From Escherichia phage JY01, in the sequence record OR995200.1: a stretch of 64,000 nucleotides of DNA. One strand, given 5' to 3'. The notes beneath the pieces were generated by a model. That model was not told where the DNA came from. It saw nothing but the letters and a program-made list of their open reading frames with translations, and searched no databases. Made by a program: the position numbers and the translations under genes. Numbering within the stretch: the stretch's first letter is position 1; every line of letters starts with the position of its first letter. Below are positions 2,517 to 46,701 of the stretch, piece after piece.

Positions 2517-3152
2517 TCACAGTTCAGATGCTACAGTGATTACTGCTTCAATGTTTTCTTCCGAGCGTTTAATGTCAAGATACACATTACCGTTTTTAGC
2601 GATTTTACATGACATTCCGATATCAGTAAATTTCTGAATATGATGTTCCATCATTTTGTATCCAAAAATTCGCATATTTCCATTGTTGTTAATTTCAAAA
2701 TTACGAATTCCGTGAGTGCGTTTTTCTAAAATAGCGAGATAGTTACTACGATAAGTTTCGACCTTTTTAAGAACAAATCCATTTTCATCTAAAAGTTTTA
2801 ACATGAGGTCTTTATCTTCTTCCATATCAGAAGTAATCTCACGAGCTTTACGAGTTGCTCGTTTTTTCAGTAGTTCCGGAGCATTTTCCTGTGCGTATAA
2901 AGTTGCTGCATTTGAAATAATATCCTGAGCTTCACCAGTAATGATTAATCCATCACCTGATTTCTCCACCAGGCCTTTTTTAATCAACACCCCAATATTA
3001 CTATTAACTACTGCGTTACCTAAATCTGGATGCACCTCACGAACTTCTGCAGCTGTAATGAAATCTTTCTTAGCAATAGTAATTAAAATCGCAGCAGTTT
3101 TTTCATTCAGAACATCGTTAGAAGCTTTGATGATGTAAGTTACTTTAGACAT
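2517..3152 (-). CDS. motA: Middle transcription activator MotA
   Basis: 211 aa, MSKVTYIIKASNDVLNEKTAAILITIAKKDF..., matches recalled T4 MotA in length and sequence. Confidence 0.85.
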   Translation of the reverse strand: MSKVTYIIKASNDVLNEKTAAILITIAKKDFITAAEVREVHPDLGNAVVNSNIGVLIKKGLVEKSGDGLIITGEAQDIISNAATLYAQENAPELLKKRATRKAREITSDMEEDKDLMLKLLDENGFVLKKVETYRSNYLAILEKRTHGIRNFEINNNGNMRIFGYKMMEHHIQKFTDIGMSCKIAKNGNVYLDIKRSEENIEAVITVASEL

Positions 3153-25181: not shown

Positions 25182-25252
25182 TATTTTTCCTTTCAATTCA
25201 TGGGTTAGTAGATTAATTATACAATAAATATATAAAGCAATAAGGAGGACAT

Positions 25253-25453
25253 ATGGTACAAAAATTAATGGCACTTGTTAATGCCATCAAAGGTAATAAG
25301 AAACGTATAGCTTTTACTATTTCTGCTATGGTAGGAATTTTACTCTGGAACTTTATTTTATCACCAATTGCAATTGCACATGGTGTTAATATTCCAGTAG
25401 TTACTCTTGATACATTTGTAGATTTAGCATTTGCTTTAGTTGGGTTAATTTAA
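25253..25453 (+). CDS. Small hydrophobic protein on the plus strand (66 aa)
   Basis: Strong AAGGAGG Shine-Dalgarno 5 nt before the ATG. Two predicted transmembrane segments. Convergent with and overlapping the primase stop. Confidence 0.55.
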   Translation: MVQKLMALVNAIKGNKKRIAFTISAMVGILLWNFILSPIAIAHGVNIPVVTLDTFVDLAFALVGLI

Positions 25454-26478
25454 ATCTTAGCATATTTAGATAACCGCATTTTAGCCATCAACCCCTGGGC
25501 AATATTATTTTTCATATATTCCATAATTTGTTCAGGGGTTGCACCTTCCTTTCTAATCATATCATTAACATCTTTTGATTTCCAGGGAGATTTATCCCAA
25601 AACATAACCCTTTCTCCTGCATCAACTAATTTAGTCATTCGCTTAATAGTGTCAGGATGACGAGGTTCATTATCTAAGACCCACACACGCCTATCTTTAA
25701 ATGGAACAACTTCTAGGTCTAATTGACCACCCGTAATAGCTATACCATTTTCAATAAAAAGTGAATCTATAGGTCCTTCTAAAACATATACATCACCATC
25801 TTTAACTCGTTCGACTCCATATATTTTTGTTGCCTCAGGATAAGCTTTGATGGTGATATATTTTTGAGGAGCATCTTTCTTTAATGCACGCCCTTGAAAC
25901 GACTCGGCTTTTCCATTAGCATTATAAATTGGAATAACAAGACGAGGCTCAGAAATTTCCTTTTTGTATGTTCCCGGTGCTATGCTATTAACTAATTTAG
26001 GCCATTCGGTTGTAAACCAAAGATATTTCCATTTATCCTTTGGAATACAACGAGCTTTTACATATTTTATAATTGGATGGTCTTCCACCAGTTTATCTAA
26101 TCTAACACATGACTGAAGAGATTTAATTATTTTCTTCTCAGGATGTTTAGGAAGTTCTTTAGGTTTTTCTACTGGACGACTTTTACCTTTTTCTTTTCTT
26201 ATTTCAAAGATATACTCACGATATAAATCAGGTTCAAACTCCTTTAAATATATTCCGATTGGTGCATGATAGTTACAGTTATAACAATGAATATTTCCTT
26301 CATTATTATCACCGTAATACCATCCACGGGCTTTATTCTGGTCGGTTTTTGAATCTCCACAAACAGGGCATCTAAACCGTAATTTAAAAGTTGAACTATT
26401 ATTTACTTGTGTGAATTTAGGTAAATGAGCTAATGCACGATACGCAAACTCATTATCAATCCAAGGTATTGATGACAT
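25450..26478 (-). CDS. 61: DNA primase
   Basis: 342 aa as in T4 gp61. N-terminal zinc ribbon CPVCGDSK...CYNC. Confidence 0.9.
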   Translation of the reverse strand: MSSIPWIDNEFAYRALAHLPKFTQVNNSSTFKLRFRCPVCGDSKTDQNKARGWYYGDNNEGNIHCYNCNYHAPIGIYLKEFEPDLYREYIFEIRKEKGKSRPVEKPKELPKHPEKKIIKSLQSCVRLDKLVEDHPIIKYVKARCIPKDKWKYLWFTTEWPKLVNSIAPGTYKKEISEPRLVIPIYNANGKAESFQGRALKKDAPQKYITIKAYPEATKIYGVERVKDGDVYVLEGPIDSLFIENGIAITGGQLDLEVVPFKDRRVWVLDNEPRHPDTIKRMTKLVDAGERVMFWDKSPWKSKDVNDMIRKEGATPEQIMEYMKNNIAQGLMAKMRLSKYAKI

Positions 26479-26480
26479 TT

Positions 26481-26645
26481 TTACTCTTCTTTTTCTTTAG
26501 ATTCCTCTTTTTTCTTTTTAGGAATCTGTTCAGGACCTTTATTTACTACAGCGCCCGACGTTGTTCCAGTAGAGATATTTTCAGGATTACCACCTGAATC
26601 TCCAGCTACCATATCTTCTTTAATAAATTCTTTATATGTTTTCAT
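26481..26645 (-). CDS. Small hypothetical protein (54 aa, not in ORF track)
   Basis: MKTYKEFIKEDMVAGDSGGNPENISTGTTSGAVVNKGPEQIPKKKKEE... AGAGGT Shine-Dalgarno. Fills the gap before the primase gene. Confidence 0.35.
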   Translation of the reverse strand: MKTYKEFIKEDMVAGDSGGNPENISTGTTSGAVVNKGPEQIPKKKKEESKEKEE

Positions 26646-26646
26646 A

Positions 26647-27003
26647 TTAACCTCTATTCATAAAAGCATTAAAAATTTGGTCATCAATAGATGGAATAGC
26701 AACCTTTTCGGCATCATTTAGCAAATCATTAATTTCATCAGATAGCATAACACATGTGCCTTTATTTCCTGTAATTGTTACTGCGCAATTACGAACGTTT
26801 TCTTTATCAAATTTTAGGTTAATATTTTCGTAGTGAAAATCCTTTAATGCCGAATATATCTTTAAAATGAAATTGTCTTTTACTACAATAAACCCAACCT
26901 CACTATTAAAACGTGGTTCATGGAAACTGTAATAAACCTTTTCATCTATAAAATCGTATGAAATTTTTTCCATTTTTAAATATGAAAATTCAGAACTATA
27001 CAT
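26647..27003 (-). CDS. Hypothetical protein (118 aa), paralogous tail with the next gene
   Basis: C-terminus SIDDQIFNAFMNRG. The 3' coding DNA is repeated at 27001-27045. Confidence 0.5.
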   Translation of the reverse strand: MYSSEFSYLKMEKISYDFIDEKVYYSFHEPRFNSEVGFIVVKDNFILKIYSALKDFHYENINLKFDKENVRNCAVTITGNKGTCVMLSDEINDLLNDAEKVAIPSIDDQIFNAFMNRG

Positions 27004-27004
27004 A

Positions 27005-27646
27005 TTAACCTTTATTCATAAAAGCATTAAAAATTTGATCGTCAATAGAAACTTTTACTTTAGGCTGTTCTTCAAACGGTAATTCATATCCACATATTAC
27101 AATTTTGTGATCAATATCAAAATACACAGAAGAAATATGATTAATGATGTTTTCAGTAAAGTCTAAATCAACATCAATATCTTTTTGACCACAGCCCAAA
27201 GGATAAATAATGCGAGTAATTCGATTATCTTTAACAAATATTCCACCGACATACTCTGTGCTGCGTTTAAAGTTTACACGTTTCCTAAATGAAAAATATT
27301 CAGGCTCTCTATGAGCTCGGCTCATAGGACACAACGAGTAACTAGAATAAGAGATGTCAAATCCTACACCTTCAATATGAGCCAACGCGTCATGATTAAA
27401 CCAATTATAATCGTACGCCAAATCCATTATATTGTAATATGTGAAAGGCACCGGATTAACATCATGCGTTGTACCTTTAAAATCTGCCCAGGCAACGATT
27501 TCGTTATCTTTAACAATTACAAAAATTGTGCCAATAAGATATCCACGGTTATTTTCATCAGGCGTTATATTATAACATTGTGCACCAGGAAATTTACCGT
27601 ATTTAAACGGTGGATTTTTGTGCATATAATAAATCATATTATTCAC
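27005..27646 (-). CDS. Hypothetical protein (213 aa)
   Basis: C-terminus SIDDQIFNAFMNKG, shared with the downstream 118-aa gene. Confidence 0.5.
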   Translation of the reverse strand: MNNMIYYMHKNPPFKYGKFPGAQCYNITPDENNRGYLIGTIFVIVKDNEIVAWADFKGTTHDVNPVPFTYYNIMDLAYDYNWFNHDALAHIEGVGFDISYSSYSLCPMSRAHREPEYFSFRKRVNFKRSTEYVGGIFVKDNRITRIIYPLGCGQKDIDVDLDFTENIINHISSVYFDIDHKIVICGYELPFEEQPKVKVSIDDQIFNAFMNKG

Positions 27647-27932
27647 CTGTGATTTCGGTTACGATATCTTTGTTATTAAAGTTTTTATCGCAATACAAAA
27701 CATAATTATACTGCATTACACCACCAGACTTAAGCTGTTTTTGCACTTCAGCTTTCATTTCAGGACGATCGCGCTCAACAATATTCATAATATCCGCTTC
27801 AATTTGAGTTTCAACTTCAGTCTGATCCGCAGTCATAGACCATTCACACAAATCTTTATCATAACCTGCCATAGCAGGCTGAGCAGCACAAGAAGCTAAA
27901 GCAAAAATTGTAGCAAAAATAAATTTTTTCAT
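27639..27932 (-). CDS. sp: Spackle (periplasmic superinfection-exclusion protein)
   Basis: 97 aa with a cleavable signal peptide (MKKFIFATIFALASCAAQPAMA), in the 61-41 interval, matching T4 Sp in length and position. Confidence 0.7.
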   Translation of the reverse strand: MKKFIFATIFALASCAAQPAMAGYDKDLCEWSMTADQTEVETQIEADIMNIVERDRPEMKAEVQKQLKSGGVMQYNYVLYCDKNFNNKDIVTEITGE

Positions 27933-27992
27933 GATAATCTCCTCAGTAGTTTATGTTTATATAGTATCTCAATTTCCAACAAAAGTAAATAG

Positions 27993-28250
27993 TTATTTTA
28001 AAACTTCTGCATAATCACATGTTACAAACTGTTTCTCTAACTTAACGATCTTACGAAAATATCTTTTGCATTGACGAATCTGCCTCTTCGTAGGACGTAC
28101 AGCAAACTTAATAAATTCCACTCGACCAAATGGAGGGCTTTCTTCTGCTGGAATATCTAACACCAATTCCCACGTTTCTGCAATAAGTGCTTTGAATTGA
28201 GTATTTTTCCTGACGTTATACGGAGTAGGTTTAAATAAAACAATATGCAT
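27993..28250 (-). CDS. Hypothetical protein (85 aa, 61.4 position)
   Basis: Basic ORF adjacent to dmd. As I recall, T4 61.4 has been reported as a ToxN inhibitor (TifA); homology here is unverified. Confidence 0.45.
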   Translation of the reverse strand: MHIVLFKPTPYNVRKNTQFKALIAETWELVLDIPAEESPPFGRVEFIKFAVRPTKRQIRQCKRYFRKIVKLEKQFVTCDYAEVLK

Positions 28251-33105: not shown

Positions 33106-33258
33106 TTAAACCTCAATTGATACATTCATATTTAACTTGTAACAGTAATAAGCTCCAACCTAAAATAATAGTTGGAATCATAAGAGGAACCGTTACACTA
33201 TAGTATATACTTATTATAATCATCAAGATTAAAAGCAACACTGTTATAATTTTGCTTT

Positions 33259-34327: not shown

Positions 34328-37024
34328 TCAGCCAAACAGGAAGTCTAACGAAGCTTTTTCTTCATAGTCCATACCAGCCGATTCACACATGCCTGCAAGC
34401 GGTTTAACAAACGATTTTTGGAACAAAGTTGAGTAGTCAATCCAAGACAGTACGTCAGAACGAATTTCTTTTGGAAGTTCTGTACCCGACGGCCAAGCAA
34501 TGCATTTGTCACCAAATGGATTTCCTTCACGCAATGGAAGAACCATTACTTTATTTCCATCCAAAATTGGAGCTACACCTAAACCGCTAACAGCTCGACG
34601 ATAAGTTAGCACACCACGAATATGGAACGGACATTTAAATCCTGGCCAACCTTTATCATCATATTTCGCTATATCGTTCGCAGTTTTTACTTCAGCAATA
34701 ACTTTATAGTCAAGTTGACGATATTCTTTCTCGAAGTTCTTGTAATATTCTTGGACAGACTCTTCACCTTCCTGAAGAATACGACGGATACTTTCTTCAA
34801 GAGCTTCTTGGACCGCTTTAGGCGTTGAACTTTGCTGAGTTTCCATACCCATGATTTTTAGATGCGGTTCAGCAAATCGCTTATCTTCCATATCATAAAC
34901 GTTCAGAGCATAACGTTTTTTCGCTTTCCAAAATCCACCAACACCCTTTGAACCAAGTGGAGGGCAAGAAATAGCTTCACGGTCCATATGCATCAGATGC
35001 TCGCGGTTATTCATATAATCACATAACTCACGATATGCAACATCAATCATAGGTTCCATCTTTTTCTTACCGAACTGATTCATGAATTCAACTAAATCGT
35101 TCTGCTCTTTGAATCGGTCAAGACCAACTTTTTCAATAACTTTATCTACACAAACATATACCGAATCAGTATCACCTGCTGCGATGAAATCTTCGCCATT
35201 AGTTCCACATACTTTATTCAGATACTCATTAATTTTACGAGCAATCCACTGAATACCGACTTGACCAAAAATTGTAATAGCAGTAGCATTTCGCAAATCA
35301 TAGTAGCGGAAATGAATATTACCAAGAGCACCGTAAAGGCTGTTAATAAGAATTTTACGGTTCAGCTGATTTGTATTAGCAAGTGTAGCCGCTTTTTCAC
35401 ATTCTTCAATCAAACTATTGAGAACAGATTCAGTATAATTCGATAGTTCATTTAAGAAATCATCACTGAACTTAACATATCGTTTAACTTCAGGTTTAGT
35501 TGAACAAGACCCTGCGCCTTTCATAATAATCTTTTTAATAGCTTCGGCATTCATTTCTTCAGCGAACATTTTCTTTTTCCAATCTTTACGCTGGAAAAAT
35601 ACTTTAGCGATTTCCTTTGGAATGATACCTTCTTGATGCTTATCATACATCCATCCATTCGGAGAACAAGAATATTCATCACTCGGTTTAGGAGCTGTTC
35701 CTGCGATATATTCATGAATTGGATGAACTTTAAACTGACCACGAATAGTCTCAGGACTAATGTTAACCTGACGAATAATGCTCGGATACAGAGACGTCAA
35801 GTCAAAACTCATAATATATCGACGAGCAATTGGTTTAGGTTCAAATACAAATGCACCCGGAAAACTTTGTTTAACGTGCGAACCTTGTTGAGGAATAACC
35901 TTATGTTCACCTTTCAATGAGTTAAAAATAATAGCATCCCAAGTTTTAATAGGACTCATTACACCAGAAAAAGGCATTTTAGCATAATAAGACATACTTA
36001 AAACTAGATCGATAAACCCGCGAATTTTATCAATTGCTTGAACTGATTCTACGTCAATGATGTTATAACTAATGTATCGTTGATGATTAGTCTCACGAAG
36101 TTTATTAATAGGACCGTCGTATGGTAATTTACCTTTTTTGGTTTCATGCTGAGCAACTGATTCCAAAGAGAATGACGGCAAATTAGTAAATGCGAATTTC
36201 TTATACAAATCTAAATAATCAAGAATAGATACGCCATCAATAGAATAAATTTCTTTGCTACCGTACATATTTTGGATAAGTTTAGATTTTACTCGACCGA
36301 TTGGAGAGAAGCGTTTCATACTGCGTTCACCAAGAACCATTTTAACACGATTCATGATATACGGAACGTCAAATCCCTCAATATTCCAACCAGTAAAAAT
36401 AGCAGGTCGTTTCTGTTCCCAAAGATTAATATATTCCATGAGCATATCACGCTCATTATCGAATGGCATATAAATTACTCGGTCAAGAATTTCTTGAGGA
36501 ACTTCATCACCACCTTCACAGTCAAGCTTAGCAGCTAACTTTGCATCCCATTTTGATACTGAACCGTACATTGAATTCAAAAGGTCGAAAACATAAAAAC
36601 GATCATCAATTGAATCGTAATGAGTGATAGCATCAATTTCATATTCAGCTTTCATTGGGTCAGGAAATTTATCACCAGTAACCTCAATGTCACAGTTAGC
36701 TACACGAACAAATTTTCGGTCATAAACAATTTCTGAACCATATGTATCACTGATATAAGCGAGTTTAAAATCGTTCATACCGAGAGCTTCGAGACCGATG
36801 TCTTCCATTCGTTTCATCCAATCTCGAGCATCTTTCATTGATGGAAATTTTTGAGGAGCACAGTTTTTACCATAGATGTCTTTGTACTTTGACTCTTCCT
36901 TACAATGTCTAAACATAGTTGGAAGATATTCTACTTCACGAGTACGTTCCTTTCCGTTTTCATCAATATAACGTTCAACAATGTTATTTCCGACTGTTTC
37001 AATAGAGATATAAAATTCTTTCAT
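34328..37024 (-). CDS. 43: DNA polymerase (family B)
   Basis: 898 aa as in T4 gp43. Exonuclease and polymerase motifs present, including DTDS. Confidence 0.95.
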   Translation of the reverse strand: MKEFYISIETVGNNIVERYIDENGKERTREVEYLPTMFRHCKEESKYKDIYGKNCAPQKFPSMKDARDWMKRMEDIGLEALGMNDFKLAYISDTYGSEIVYDRKFVRVANCDIEVTGDKFPDPMKAEYEIDAITHYDSIDDRFYVFDLLNSMYGSVSKWDAKLAAKLDCEGGDEVPQEILDRVIYMPFDNERDMLMEYINLWEQKRPAIFTGWNIEGFDVPYIMNRVKMVLGERSMKRFSPIGRVKSKLIQNMYGSKEIYSIDGVSILDYLDLYKKFAFTNLPSFSLESVAQHETKKGKLPYDGPINKLRETNHQRYISYNIIDVESVQAIDKIRGFIDLVLSMSYYAKMPFSGVMSPIKTWDAIIFNSLKGEHKVIPQQGSHVKQSFPGAFVFEPKPIARRYIMSFDLTSLYPSIIRQVNISPETIRGQFKVHPIHEYIAGTAPKPSDEYSCSPNGWMYDKHQEGIIPKEIAKVFFQRKDWKKKMFAEEMNAEAIKKIIMKGAGSCSTKPEVKRYVKFSDDFLNELSNYTESVLNSLIEECEKAATLANTNQLNRKILINSLYGALGNIHFRYYDLRNATAITIFGQVGIQWIARKINEYLNKVCGTNGEDFIAAGDTDSVYVCVDKVIEKVGLDRFKEQNDLVEFMNQFGKKKMEPMIDVAYRELCDYMNNREHLMHMDREAISCPPLGSKGVGGFWKAKKRYALNVYDMEDKRFAEPHLKIMGMETQQSSTPKAVQEALEESIRRILQEGEESVQEYYKNFEKEYRQLDYKVIAEVKTANDIAKYDDKGWPGFKCPFHIRGVLTYRRAVSGLGVAPILDGNKVMVLPLREGNPFGDKCIAWPSGTELPKEIRSDVLSWIDYSTLFQKSFVKPLAGMCESAGMDYEEKASLDFLFG

Positions 37025-39984: not shown

Positions 39985-40039
39985 GTAATTTCCTTCAATT
40001 CAAATGAGATTTAATTTTATAACTAATTTAATAAAGCAA

Positions 40040-45941: not shown

Positions 45942-46160
45942 TTATTTCTCTAATATAAAATAAAAATCATCATCTGTTAAATGATACCGATAGTTTAATT
46001 CTACACCATTAGATTTAAAAGCGGTATCATACGGATTTTCTGGATCAATATCAATGTCAAGAGCTAAAACTTCCCTGAGATACATTTTAAGTAAATAGGG
46101 AATAGCTTCAACTTCAGGTATTTCTTCCAAGAATCCGGAGAGGTTAATCGTTAGCCTCAT
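45942..46160 (-). CDS. Hypothetical protein (72 aa)
   Basis: ORF directly downstream of gene 55. Confidence 0.45.
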
Positions 46161-46701
46161 ATAAAAAATCCAAACTAGGAGAATCGTCTACAACACTTTT
46201 CTTTTCAGCCCCCGGTGTTCTATAGGTTGATTCTTCGTAATGCGTCATTTTATCATAGATGTCTTGAATAAAAGTTTCATCTACTAACGCAACCATATCG
46301 TCGTCACGGCTGTCATAGACATTGTGAACGAAGTAACTATATTTCTTTGCAACTTCCTTACGTTCTTTTTTAATACGCTGGACGAATGCATTAAAACAAG
46401 CTTGAGTTATATATGCATGTGGGTTTTTATATTTCGTTTCATCAAAATTATGAAGCCCCTTAATAGAAGCTTCTATACCATCTGCAATCATTTCTTGTTT
46501 CCAAGACTGGGTGTATCCTGAAAAGTTGAAACGTTTAGATAAGCCTTCTGCAATAAGCATAATGGCTAATCCGATAGTATCATTCTGACGAACTACTTTA
46601 TTTGGGTCTTTATTATTTGCTAATTCTGTTTTCCAATCAATAATAGCTTGTAAAAGCTCTTTATTGTTTACGTAATTATATTTAGGCTTAGTTTCTGACA
46701 T
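46144..46701 (-). CDS. 55: Late-promoter sigma factor
   Basis: Trimmed to [24 protein letters not shown]... (185 aa as in T4 gp55). AGAGGTGA Shine-Dalgarno. Confidence 0.85.

Follow-up and report, generated by a model that had tools for sequence, protein, structure and literature searches.

Why do two neighbouring genes of a T-even phage, encoding proteins of different length, end in almost the same DNA and in the same C-terminal peptide? The question arises from sequence OR995200.1, of which a stretch of 64,000 nucleotides (the window) was analysed. The window is of Tequatrovirus type, with 97-99% nucleotide identity to ECML-363/RB51. Two ORFs on the minus strand, 26647-27003 (118 aa) and 27005-27646 (213 aa from GTG), are both present and end in ...SIDDQIFNAFMNRG and ...SIDDQIFNAFMNKG, in agreement with an earlier note that had described their common tail. 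This note had further taken the N-terminal parts of the two proteins to be unrelated and had suggested either recombination-mediated domain swapping or a shared interaction tail.

The gene order in the window is 41-dmd-61.4-sp-61.2-ORF033c-61.1-61, as in Tequatroviruses. The AdfA-family locus is conserved in T-even phages, with sp directly upstream and 61.1/61 downstream. Srikant et al. named the locus (dmd, tifA/61.4, adfA) the 'anti-toxin island'. The genes of interest are:

27639-27932, minus strand: sp (spackle), the upstream neighbour; Pfam T4_Spackle, E 3.5e-45
27005-27637, minus strand: adfA (T4 61.2, anti-DarT factor A), 210 aa; Pfam PF23813, E 4.6e-136, full length; phrog_3781
26647-27003, minus strand: short one-domain AdfA paralogue, 118 aa (RB32ORF033c type); Pfam AdfA, 34.1 bits; phrog_4122
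26481-26645, minus strand: gene 61.1, 54 aa; the tail codons R-G of the short paralogue contain its ribosome-binding site GAGG
25450-26478, minus strand: gene 61 (DNA primase), which P61-type transcripts would serve

Two tandem genes of the AdfA family

The longer gene is adfA. AdfA, the anti-DarT factor A, is gp61.2 of T4 (LeRoux et al., as cited in PMC11257639). The 213-aa version starts with GTG at 27646, within the end of sp; relatives annotate ATG 27637, which gives 210 aa. The gene matches the Pfam model AdfA (PF23813) over its full length with 451 bits, and its orthologue is annotated as 'anti-DarT factor A' in PV857777 and as 'gp61.2' in RB51. It is a full-length family member with the His allele: in the alignment the residue corresponding to RB69 R164H, which is part of the AdfA body and not of the tail, is His. 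R164H controls the binding of DarT1, and the His allele is associated with DarT1 neutralisation (PMC11257639).

The 118-aa gene, located between sp and 61.1, matches the C-terminal half of the same model (positions 113-211) with 34.1 bits against a gathering cut-off of 27, a score that comes partly from the tail. In profile-profile comparisons (hhalign) the short body without its tail aligned with the C-terminal half of AdfA at E 2.3e-4 and with the N-terminal half at E 8.6e-4, and the two halves of AdfA, again without tail, aligned with each other at E 1.8e-3; these scores are weak, with probabilities of 15-45% across the body comparisons. Foldseek against viral models returned AdfA (212 aa) and a 145-aa protein of phage VR25, with the signal again partly due to the tail. 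The RB51 record notes the short gene as 'similar to gp61.2', and the bodies of the two genes are about 30% identical. The homology of the bodies is thus weak but consistent, and the N-terminal parts cannot be called unrelated. Judged by these comparisons, the two genes are probably tandem, diverged AdfA-family paralogues. AdfA would then consist of two copies of a beta-rich domain of ~100 residues, whereas the 118-aa gene has one such domain. It also differs from AdfA in having no His at the position aligned to R164H, where Asn or Cys is found, depending on the alignment.

The short gene is found in roughly 300 sequenced Tequatroviruses, including T2. T4 has adfA only and T2 has the short gene only; T2 has been described as lacking adfA (PMC11257639). 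For work on DarTG counter-defence the short gene is a candidate AdfA relative that is present even in a phage regarded as adfA-less. A third body type, a 145-aa gene, occupies the identical locus in Gaprivervirus and Dhakavirus and has the same tail. The comparison with related phages that the note had proposed gives three body types with the same tail at this locus; the bodies of the pair in the window are weakly homologous.

The C-terminal peptide

The tail peptide DDQIFNAFM(N/K)(R/K)(G/D) is the near-invariant C-terminal end of the family, with 14 residues shared. It was present in every full-length member examined, these coming from several genera of T-even phages and representing three body types, and the divergent short members P0026 and P0029 retain DDQIFNAFMNRG. 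For the codon comparison 27 copies of the tail were used, drawn from six phage lineages, of which four are named genera and two are unclassified. In the codons for DDQIFNAFM none of the 18 first and second positions varied, whereas 7 of the 8 degenerate third positions did. A constant peptide with variable third codon positions indicates selection on the peptide, and by this codon pattern DDQIFNAFM(N/K)(R/K)(G/D) is under strong purifying selection. No other part of the family is as conserved as the C-terminal peptide, which should be of interest for studies of DarTG counter-defence.

An exhaustive profile search of 1.84 billion proteins returned only 10 representative clusters and did not reach the 145-aa family; word-indexed protein searches yielded no more than 16 and 5 close relatives, none of them with a new architecture. 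In the literature searched we found no paper that treats the short paralogue or the tail and no discussion of the shared C-terminal peptide, nor, in the papers searched, any mention of a promoter inside the conserved C-terminal codons of the AdfA family.

AlphaFold placed a short tail helix at the end of the chain with low pLDDT in both models (short paralogue: 83.6 overall, above 90 in the body, ~55 in the tail helix). In AdfA this helix is preceded by a low-confidence linker, and the linker varies in sequence and length across the family. The hydrophobic moment of the tail is ordinary. It is reached by 29% of shuffles, and the idea of an amphipathic helix was therefore dropped. On the basis of these models and of the presence of the peptide in every full-length member examined, the 'shared interaction tail' proposed earlier is our best guess at the function of the peptide, and the role we favour is that of a tethered docking helix.

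Signals within the 49-nt repeat

At the DNA level, the earlier note had estimated about 45 near-identical nucleotides around both stop codons and had made its case dependent on a repeat of at least 20 nt. Alignment gives a slightly longer repeat of 49 nt, 46 of them identical, with a spacing of 358 nt:

26643-26691, minus strand: repeat copy A at the end of the short paralogue; codons 26650-26691, TAA 26647-26649, one T, ATG of 61.1 at 26643-26645
27001-27049, minus strand: repeat copy B at the end of adfA; codons 27008-27049, TAA 27005-27007, one T, ATG of the short paralogue at 27001-27003

Each copy comprises the 14 final codons and the stop codon TAA, then one T, and ends with the start codon ATG of the gene that follows. 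The join between sp and adfA is the same TAA-T-ATG junction. In the 64-kb window only these two copies occur (0 expected, 100 shuffles), and when the 3.3-kb region was Markov-shuffled 100 times the top 49-nt match reached no more than 33/49, which rules out chance or low complexity as the origin of the repeat. Of the 12 degenerate codons compared between the copies 10 are identical, where 6.5 are expected from identical amino acids and the codon bias of the phage (P about 0.03, marginal). Hence the identity of the peptide accounts for most of the DNA identity. The repeat is real, yet it is assembled from known parts.

One of these parts is probably a promoter. MotA is the activator that middle promoters require, and the phage encodes it. 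The following elements are relevant here:

26644-26670, minus strand: middle promoter by sequence geometry, orthologue of T4 P61 (copy A); MotA box AATGCTTTT 26662-26670, spacer ATGAATAGAGGT 26650-26661, -10 TAATAT 26644-26649
27002-27028, minus strand: second, predicted middle promoter (copy B); MotA box AATGCTTTT 27020-27028, spacer ATGAATAAAGGT 27008-27019, -10 TAATAT 27002-27007
2517-3152, minus strand: motA; Pfam MotA_activ, E 4.7e-61, and MotCF, E 2e-66

The MotA box coincides with the codons N-A-F. It is followed by a spacer of 12 bp and by TAATAT, in which the stop codon and the single T are joined to the first two letters of the next ATG. Box and -10 are alike in the two copies, and the spacer differs at one position. 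Both copies read TAATGCTTTT and agree with the MotA consensus (a/t)(a/t)(a/t)TGCTTtA at 9 of 10 positions, the final A being replaced by T. The consensus is centred near -30 at a distance of 12+/-1 bp from the -10 element, and single deviations are tolerated by MotA (PMC2988021). TAATAT conforms in both copies to the sigma-70 -10 pattern TAnnnT, 12+/-1 bp downstream of the box. Within the window the MotA-promoter motif was found 22 times against 4.7 expected, a 4.7-fold enrichment.

Copy A corresponds to the 61.2/61.1 junction of T4 and is identical to it across all 49 nt, including the MotA box, the 12-bp spacer and the -10 element of P61. For T4 P61 the start site 19122 is given (Marshall, Sharma and Hinton 1999, as listed in Table 1 of PMC2988021). 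The first T of TAATAT lies exactly 12 nt away from this start, so that positions -12 to -7 fall on this hexamer (T4 19134-19129). T4 has no counterpart of the second copy, which in the window lies 358 nt upstream. Phage Lutter annotates promoters at both tails, the one at copy A with 27 nt.

Taken by its sequence geometry and the published T4 start site, copy A in Tequatrovirus is most likely a MotA/AsiA-dependent middle promoter. Its predicted +1 at 26637 is within 61.1, and the transcript would thus serve the primase gene 61. Copy B is predicted to be a second MotA/AsiA-dependent middle promoter. Its predicted +1 at 26995 is 8 nt past the A of the ATG of the short paralogue, so that the predicted transcript would start without the start codon of this gene. 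In other phages box or -10 are degraded, as in the RB69-type (TGCATTT), in Gaprivervirus (TGCCTTC) and in some Dhakavirus (TGATAT). The promoter is thus not a property of the whole family.

Besides the promoter, the repeat contains the ribosome-binding site and the start of the downstream gene. Both this translation start and the promoter, whose geometry fits T4 P61, had been missed by the earlier reader. If the promoter assignment is right, a single stretch of 49 nt would hold a selected peptide, the middle promoter of the primase gene and a translation start, an example of the signal density of T4-type phages.

Early promoters with a stem-loop have reportedly been described for T4-type phages by Arbiol et al. 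in 2010 as PeSL (promoter-stem-loop) cassettes. PeSLs are intergenic, are repeated at gene boundaries and have been proposed as mediators of modular shuffling. They share with the present repeat that both are repeated regulatory sequences at gene boundaries. However, the repeat is coding and has a middle promoter, so it was not assigned to the PeSL type. A consensus scan of the repeat gave neither a sigma-70 -35/-10 pair nor a terminator-like hairpin, and an early promoter or intrinsic terminator inside it was rejected; the number of promoter-like (sigma-70) matches in the region equalled the shuffle expectation. A search of 26300-28000 for structured RNA, up to E 1, matched no Rfam family.

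Probable exchange between the two copies

The two copies are direct repeats that bracket exactly one gene unit of 358 nt. T4 and vB_EcoM-101112UKE3-1, which have no 118-aa gene, show single 358-nt gaps relative to the window with junctions within the repeat; the best-scoring alignment puts the gaps at its 5' edge and ~12 nt inside. Since the repeats are one gene unit apart, homologous recombination between them would add or remove the short paralogue cleanly, without damage to the reading frame of adfA, to the promoter or to the start of 61.1, and this would explain the presence/absence pattern among close relatives. The duplicated stretch could thereby serve as a clean break-and-join point for the gain and loss of anti-toxin genes. 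The N-terminus of adfA is itself mosaic (T4-type or RB32-type), and each N-terminal type occurs both with and without the short gene.

Two-site haplotypes of the D codons, GATGAC and GACGAT, were found at both copy positions in different genomes, and in slur14 the two copies are identical at 48 of 49 positions. Paralogous tails within a genome differ at 1-4 of 36 nt; orthologous tails of the short paralogue in Tequatrovirus and Gaprivervirus differ at 4-6 of 36 (few genomes). Taken together, these sequences suggest that the copies exchange occasionally. Of the recombination proposed earlier, the 358-nt gaps and the haplotypes common to both positions thus support exchange, whereas swapping between unrelated N-terminal domains is not supported for this pair, as the two genes are probably diverged paralogues.

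The chimeric tail of UKE3-1 is ambiguous as proof of a crossover within the repeat, as the downstream copy of Sf21 has the same haplotype; the case is based on the exact 358-nt gaps instead. The T2-type loss of adfA did not occur via the 49-nt repeat: about 11 nt of the tail end are left, and there is no clean microhomology at the junction.

Srikant, Guegler and Laub (bioRxiv 10.1101/2022.04.14.488369) reported recombination between short homologies in the dmd-tifA-adfA region of T4. As here, anti-toxin genes of the same island are gained and lost via flanking repeats. Their homologies were 2-10 bp long and acted under laboratory selection, whereas the repeat described here comprises 49 nt and is functional in both genes, and the polymorphism occurs among natural isolates.

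Why the 49 nt stay alike

We consider it likely that three layers keep the 49 nt alike in these tandem AdfA-family paralogues while their bodies drift to about 30% identity. Purifying selection acts on the tail peptide and leaves synonymous changes free. The same DNA would function as middle promoter and, for the downstream gene, as ribosome-binding site and translation start, with transcripts beginning 8 nt past the A of the next ATG and providing middle-mode mRNA for primase gene 61. Finally, the copies would sometimes exchange sequence.

The similarity could also be a matter of DNA only, caused by recent gene conversion between the tails or by their unequal crossing-over, with no special role for the peptide. 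The haplotypes found at both positions, the slur14 copies, the position of the 358-nt junctions in the repeat and the ability of T4 to amplify and delete via short homologies in this gene island (bioRxiv 10.1101/2022.04.14.488369) all agree with this. Yet genomes with a single gene (T4, RB69-type, Dhakavirus, L023, L026) keep the peptide unchanged with no donor copy, and synonymous sites differ between genera where the amino acids are the same. The single-copy genomes largely refute conversion as the sole cause, and we regard this explanation as unlikely. Alternatively, the conserved object could be the DNA of the promoter and the translation start, which would merely happen to encode the peptide. 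Indeed box, -10, ribosome-binding site and ATG together take up 28 nt at the 3' end of the repeat, 27 of which belong to promoter elements, the last being the G of the ATG. None of the three positions at which the copies differ falls in the MotA box or the -10, and the listed start of T4 P61 fits the geometry. However, the 5' half of the repeat (S-I-D-D-Q-I-F) is outside the promoter core, and here DDQIF is invariant in 27 of 27 tail copies and the residues before it vary only conservatively. Moreover, third positions in the MotA box are not constant across genera (GCT/GCC/GCA, TTT/TTC, AAT/AAC), and several genomes have a broken -10 (TGATAT, TAAAGA), in both cases with unchanged amino acids. 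Of the explanations discussed here this one seems to us the least probable.

The tail could also be a portable cassette which was recombined onto unrelated N-terminal bodies. This would account for the three body types with the same tail at one locus, and the mosaic N-terminus of adfA would fit as well. The 145-aa type, which has no Pfam match, showed no significant similarity to AdfA or to the short body outside the tail (hhalign E 0.04-0.15). Nevertheless, Foldseek connects the 145-aa protein with the short paralogue (E 7.6e-4, TM 0.47-0.57). Together with the homology of the pair in the window this makes divergence of paralogues simpler than a fusion of unrelated parts, and we consider such shuffling very unlikely.

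A possible role of the tail

In the role that we favour, the helix at the chain end would dock all family members on one conserved partner, and the variable bodies would bind different DarT-type toxins. Extending this, the C-terminal helix might be a portable docking peptide that tethers all three body types to the same partner, the bodies recognising different toxin variants, and recombination at the tail could swap anti-toxin modules between co-infecting T-even phages. As the 49 nt contain the promoter and the start of the next gene, such a swap would spare primase expression. This extended proposal is speculative and in our view rather doubtful. Candidate partners would be a replisome component, e.g. 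the gp45 clamp by analogy with the gp43/gp55/gp33 tails, or else some conserved surface on toxins of the DarT type.

The C-termini of T4 gp43, gp55 and gp33 are epitopes that bind the sliding clamp gp45 (PMC2988020). They share with the AdfA tail a short, conserved hydrophobic/acidic peptide at the extreme C-terminus, a divergent linker of variable length in front of it and differing bodies. What the AdfA tail shares in sequence with SLDFL(F/Y) of gp43/gp55 in the window is limited to S-[IL]-D and to its content of aromatic residues, with no ungapped alignment beyond S-[IL]-D. The likeness is meant as an analogy of architecture and not as a claim of membership. The gp43 of the window ends in ASLDFLFG; the AdfA tails, about twice as long as the gp45 epitopes, begin with (P/V)SID and contain spaced aromatic residues.

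Setting of the repeat

The C-terminal peptide of the AdfA family, the promoter P61 and the boundaries of a gene presence/absence polymorphism coincide in one repeated DNA segment. The component parts are already known: AdfA as a family, P61 as a promoter of T4, and the paralogue from a GenBank note. In the literature searched, we found no description of the conserved peptide and P61 as the same DNA, of two copies of this DNA in a phage of this type, or of the copies as boundaries of this common polymorphism.

The genome is that of a Tequatrovirus, and the segment is on its - strand, in a 4.6-kb region with 97-99% identity to ECML-363, SfPhi01, RB51, AR1 and many others. Annotated relatives have the order 41, dmd, 61.4, sp, 61.2, RB32ORF033c, 61.1, 61. 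In the window the genes are:

27639-27932, - strand, sp
27005-27637, - strand, 61.2 (adfA), 210 aa from the ATG at 27637, the start used by annotated relatives
26647-27003, - strand, 118-aa gene (short paralogue)
26481-26645, - strand, 61.1, a 54-aa gene
25450-26478, - strand, primase gene 61

The 213-aa protein of the earlier note is a valid reading frame from a GTG at 27646, but this GTG overlaps the end of sp and is not the start in relatives. A TAA-T-ATG junction is used three times in succession, at sp/adfA (27637-27641), adfA/short paralogue (27001-27007) and short paralogue/61.1 (26643-26649). In a distant T4-like contig (L026 4613-5077) 61.1 is not a separate 54-aa gene (phrog_2086); its peptide (…EDMVAGDAGGNP…VVNKGP…) is the C-terminal part of a 154-aa protein.

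Copy A of the repeat (26643-26691) spans the short gene/61.1 junction and copy B (27001-27049) the adfA/short gene junction. They are 358 nt apart, the length of the short gene plus its one-base spacer. The near-identical DNA, put at about 45 nt in the earlier note, is real and not due to chance: alignment gives 49 nt with 46/49 bases identical, not a repeat below 20 nt or none, whereas 100 shuffles of the region gave at most 33/49 over that length. No further copy was found in the window (0 expected by chance). Its coding-strand sequence is TCT ATT GAY GAY CAA ATT TTT AAT GCT TTT ATG AAT ARA GGT TAA T ATG, which comprises the final 14 codons with their stop, a single base, and then the ATG that opens the next gene. 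With amino acids fixed and the window's own codon usage, 10/12 degenerate codons are identical versus 6.5 expected (P about 0.03), so that peptide identity in this A+T-biased genome accounts for most of the nucleotide identity, with a small excess left.

Relationship of the protein bodies

The view that the parts preceding the shared tail are unrelated was not borne out. Pfam AdfA covers the 213-aa protein over its full length (E 4.6e-136), and the 118-aa protein matches model positions 113-211 above the curated cut-off; PHROG cross-matches are concordant for both. BLASTP aligned the two at 34% identity over 106 residues, with only E 0.017 once the tail was removed. In profile-profile comparisons of family alignments trimmed of the tail, the short body matched both the C-half (E 2.3e-4) and the N-half (E 8.6e-4) of AdfA, and the halves matched each other (hhalign, E 1.8e-3); every alignment crosses the same [IV]VKDNxI strand pair. 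The AlphaFold model of the short protein (pLDDT 83.6; body >90, tail helix about 55) shows five strands, helix, strand, helix and tail helix. The AdfA model (pLDDT 68.5) has the same order in its C-half, followed by a low-confidence linker (residues about 175-196) and the tail helix (198-207). Our reading is that AdfA probably arose by internal duplication of a roughly 100-residue domain, the 118-aa gene encoding one such domain followed by the tail. The RB51 record annotates this gene as 'similar to gp61.2'.

A 16-nt direct repeat inside adfA (27225-27240 and 27504-27519) codes for the VKDN motif of each half and is compatible with an ancient internal duplication of the domain. The gene is also mosaic: its first ~170 nt (27470-27637, -) are of T4 or RB32 type, versions that are barely alignable, and the other ~420 nt are 92-96% identical between the window, T4 and slur14.

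Conservation of the tail peptide

The locus was compared in T4, T2, Sf21, VR25, VR20, Yersinia phage P8, RB69-type and JS98/VR5-type contigs and two more distant T4-like contigs. Each gene occupying the position after sp ends in (S/A/T)(I/V/T)DDQIFNAFM(N/K)(R/K)(G/D). The check for variable bodies with the same tail, suggested in the earlier note, turned up three body types:

Two-domain AdfA, 208-216 aa, in Tequatrovirus and RB69-type phages
One-domain short form, 116-125 aa, in Tequatrovirus, Gaprivervirus and two distant contigs
145-aa form (phrog_8539), in Gaprivervirus and Dhakavirus

The 145-aa body has no significant sequence similarity to the other two; by Foldseek this form matches the short-protein model (E 7.6e-4). 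It is a narrow family: ten clusters came out of an exhaustive profile search covering 1.84 billion representatives. Its most conserved feature is the tail. Among the DDQIFNAFM codons of 27 tail copies, 0/18 first and second positions vary but 7/8 degenerate third positions do, the signature of selection on the peptide and not on the DNA.

A predicted P61-type promoter within the tail

In the record of phage Lutter, both tails bear a 27-nt 'promoter' annotation, consisting of AATGCTTTT, a 12-nt spacer and TAATAT. This arrangement fits the rule for T4 middle promoters, in which a MotA box, (a/t)(a/t)(a/t)TGCTTtA, is followed after 12+/-1 bp by a sigma-70 -10 (PMC2988021). Table 1 of that review, crediting Marshall, Sharma and Hinton 1999, gives 19122 as the P61 start site. 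T4 has the stop of 61.2 at 19134-19132 and the ATG of 61.1 at 19130-19128; thus -12 to -7 relative to 19122 is exactly TAATAT, with TAA from the stop codon, T from the one-base spacer and AT from the start codon. Copy A equals T4 over 49/49 nt and is therefore the P61 orthologue. Its predicted start, 26637, falls inside 61.1, which accounts for the naming of the promoter after gene 61. In copy B the box and the -10 are unchanged, one spacer base differs, and the predicted start is 26995. TGCTTYW-N11-13-TANNNT occurs 22 times in the window versus 4.7 expected, 15 times on the - strand (e. g. 25216-25239, 33213-33237, 40014-40038), and the MotA gene is at 2517-3152.

Conservation of the tail could reflect this promoter. 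However, RB69-type and Gaprivervirus tails have TGCATTT and TGCCTTC at the MotA box, the -10 is TGATAT in several tails from Dhakavirus, and in one distant contig the next start codon is shifted away, with the peptide unchanged throughout. This argues that the promoter is an overlay and not the cause of conservation. Within Dhakavirus-type contigs (L017-L022, around 2510-2565) two tail haplotypes occur: in one the MotA box and TAATAT are intact, in the other GCC and TGATAT leave both elements degraded; there is also one intermediate, and the peptide is identical in all.

The R/K-G codons of the tail also supply the next gene's ribosome-binding site (GAGG before 61.1). Before 61.1 or 61.4-like genes the site is AGAGGT or CGAGGT. 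Before the short paralogue it is always weakened, to AAAGGT (window 27005-27013), AGAGAT (slur14, L029 1050-1061) or CGAGAT (Gaprivervirus, L006 2485-2496), which points either to poor translation of the short paralogue or to a relaxed constraint.

Possible role of the tail

AdfA neutralises DarT1 through binding, and R164H, a specificity-changing residue, is in the body (PMC11257639); the window AdfA has His there. The tail closes the chain and packs poorly in both models, in AdfA after a linker of variable length. This placement, together with a sequence kept constant on bodies diverged beyond recognition, suggests a peptide that docks onto a conserved partner. Within this phage, the clamp-binding C-termini of gp43, gp55 and gp33 come closest as an architectural analogy (PMC2988020); window gp43 (34328-37024) ends in the known epitope ...KASLDFLFG, and the C-terminus of gp55 (46144-46701) is likewise a known epitope. 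The resemblance of (P/V)SIDDQIFNAFM to the gp43 and gp55 ends is slight, only S-[IL]-D and the aromatic spacing being common, and we consider this reading, an argument by analogy, unlikely.

Proposed gain or loss of genes at the repeat

Global alignment with the window gave a single 358-nt gap in both T4, at the 5' edge of the repeat, and vB_EcoM-101112UKE3-1, about 12 nt inside it. Neither gap disturbs the adfA frame, the promoter or the start of 61.1. Amplification and deletion via short homologies are known for this island, termed an anti-toxin island (bioRxiv 10.1101/2022.04.14.488369).

Gene architectures in the phage collection (rough counts; some records are RefSeq/GenBank duplicates)
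Matching the adfA plus short-gene query: 634 records
Both genes contiguous: 157
Short gene at >=60% identity: about 298
Short gene only: about 140 (298 minus 157)
adfA only: about 335 (634 minus 298)

Both T4-type and RB32-type adfA N-termini occur alongside the short gene and also in its absence. Of the two-site D-codon haplotypes, GATGAC and GACGAT are each seen at either copy position when different genomes are compared. The slur14 tail copies are 48/49 identical, and tails of within-genome paralogues differ at 1-4/36 nt versus 4-6 for Tequatrovirus-Gaprivervirus short-gene orthologues. In this small sample, these patterns point to exchange between the copies.

T2 has been described as naturally adfA-less (PMC11257639), and its 118-aa gene matches Pfam AdfA. 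In T2-type phages (L004, T2, 2430-2545; L030, AV121, 860-925) adfA is lost and about 11 nt of its tail end (TTAGAGGTTAGTATG) persist before the short paralogue. In the T2 RefSeq record an extra A truncates the C-terminus of sp (NKNNHR*), a change absent from AV121.
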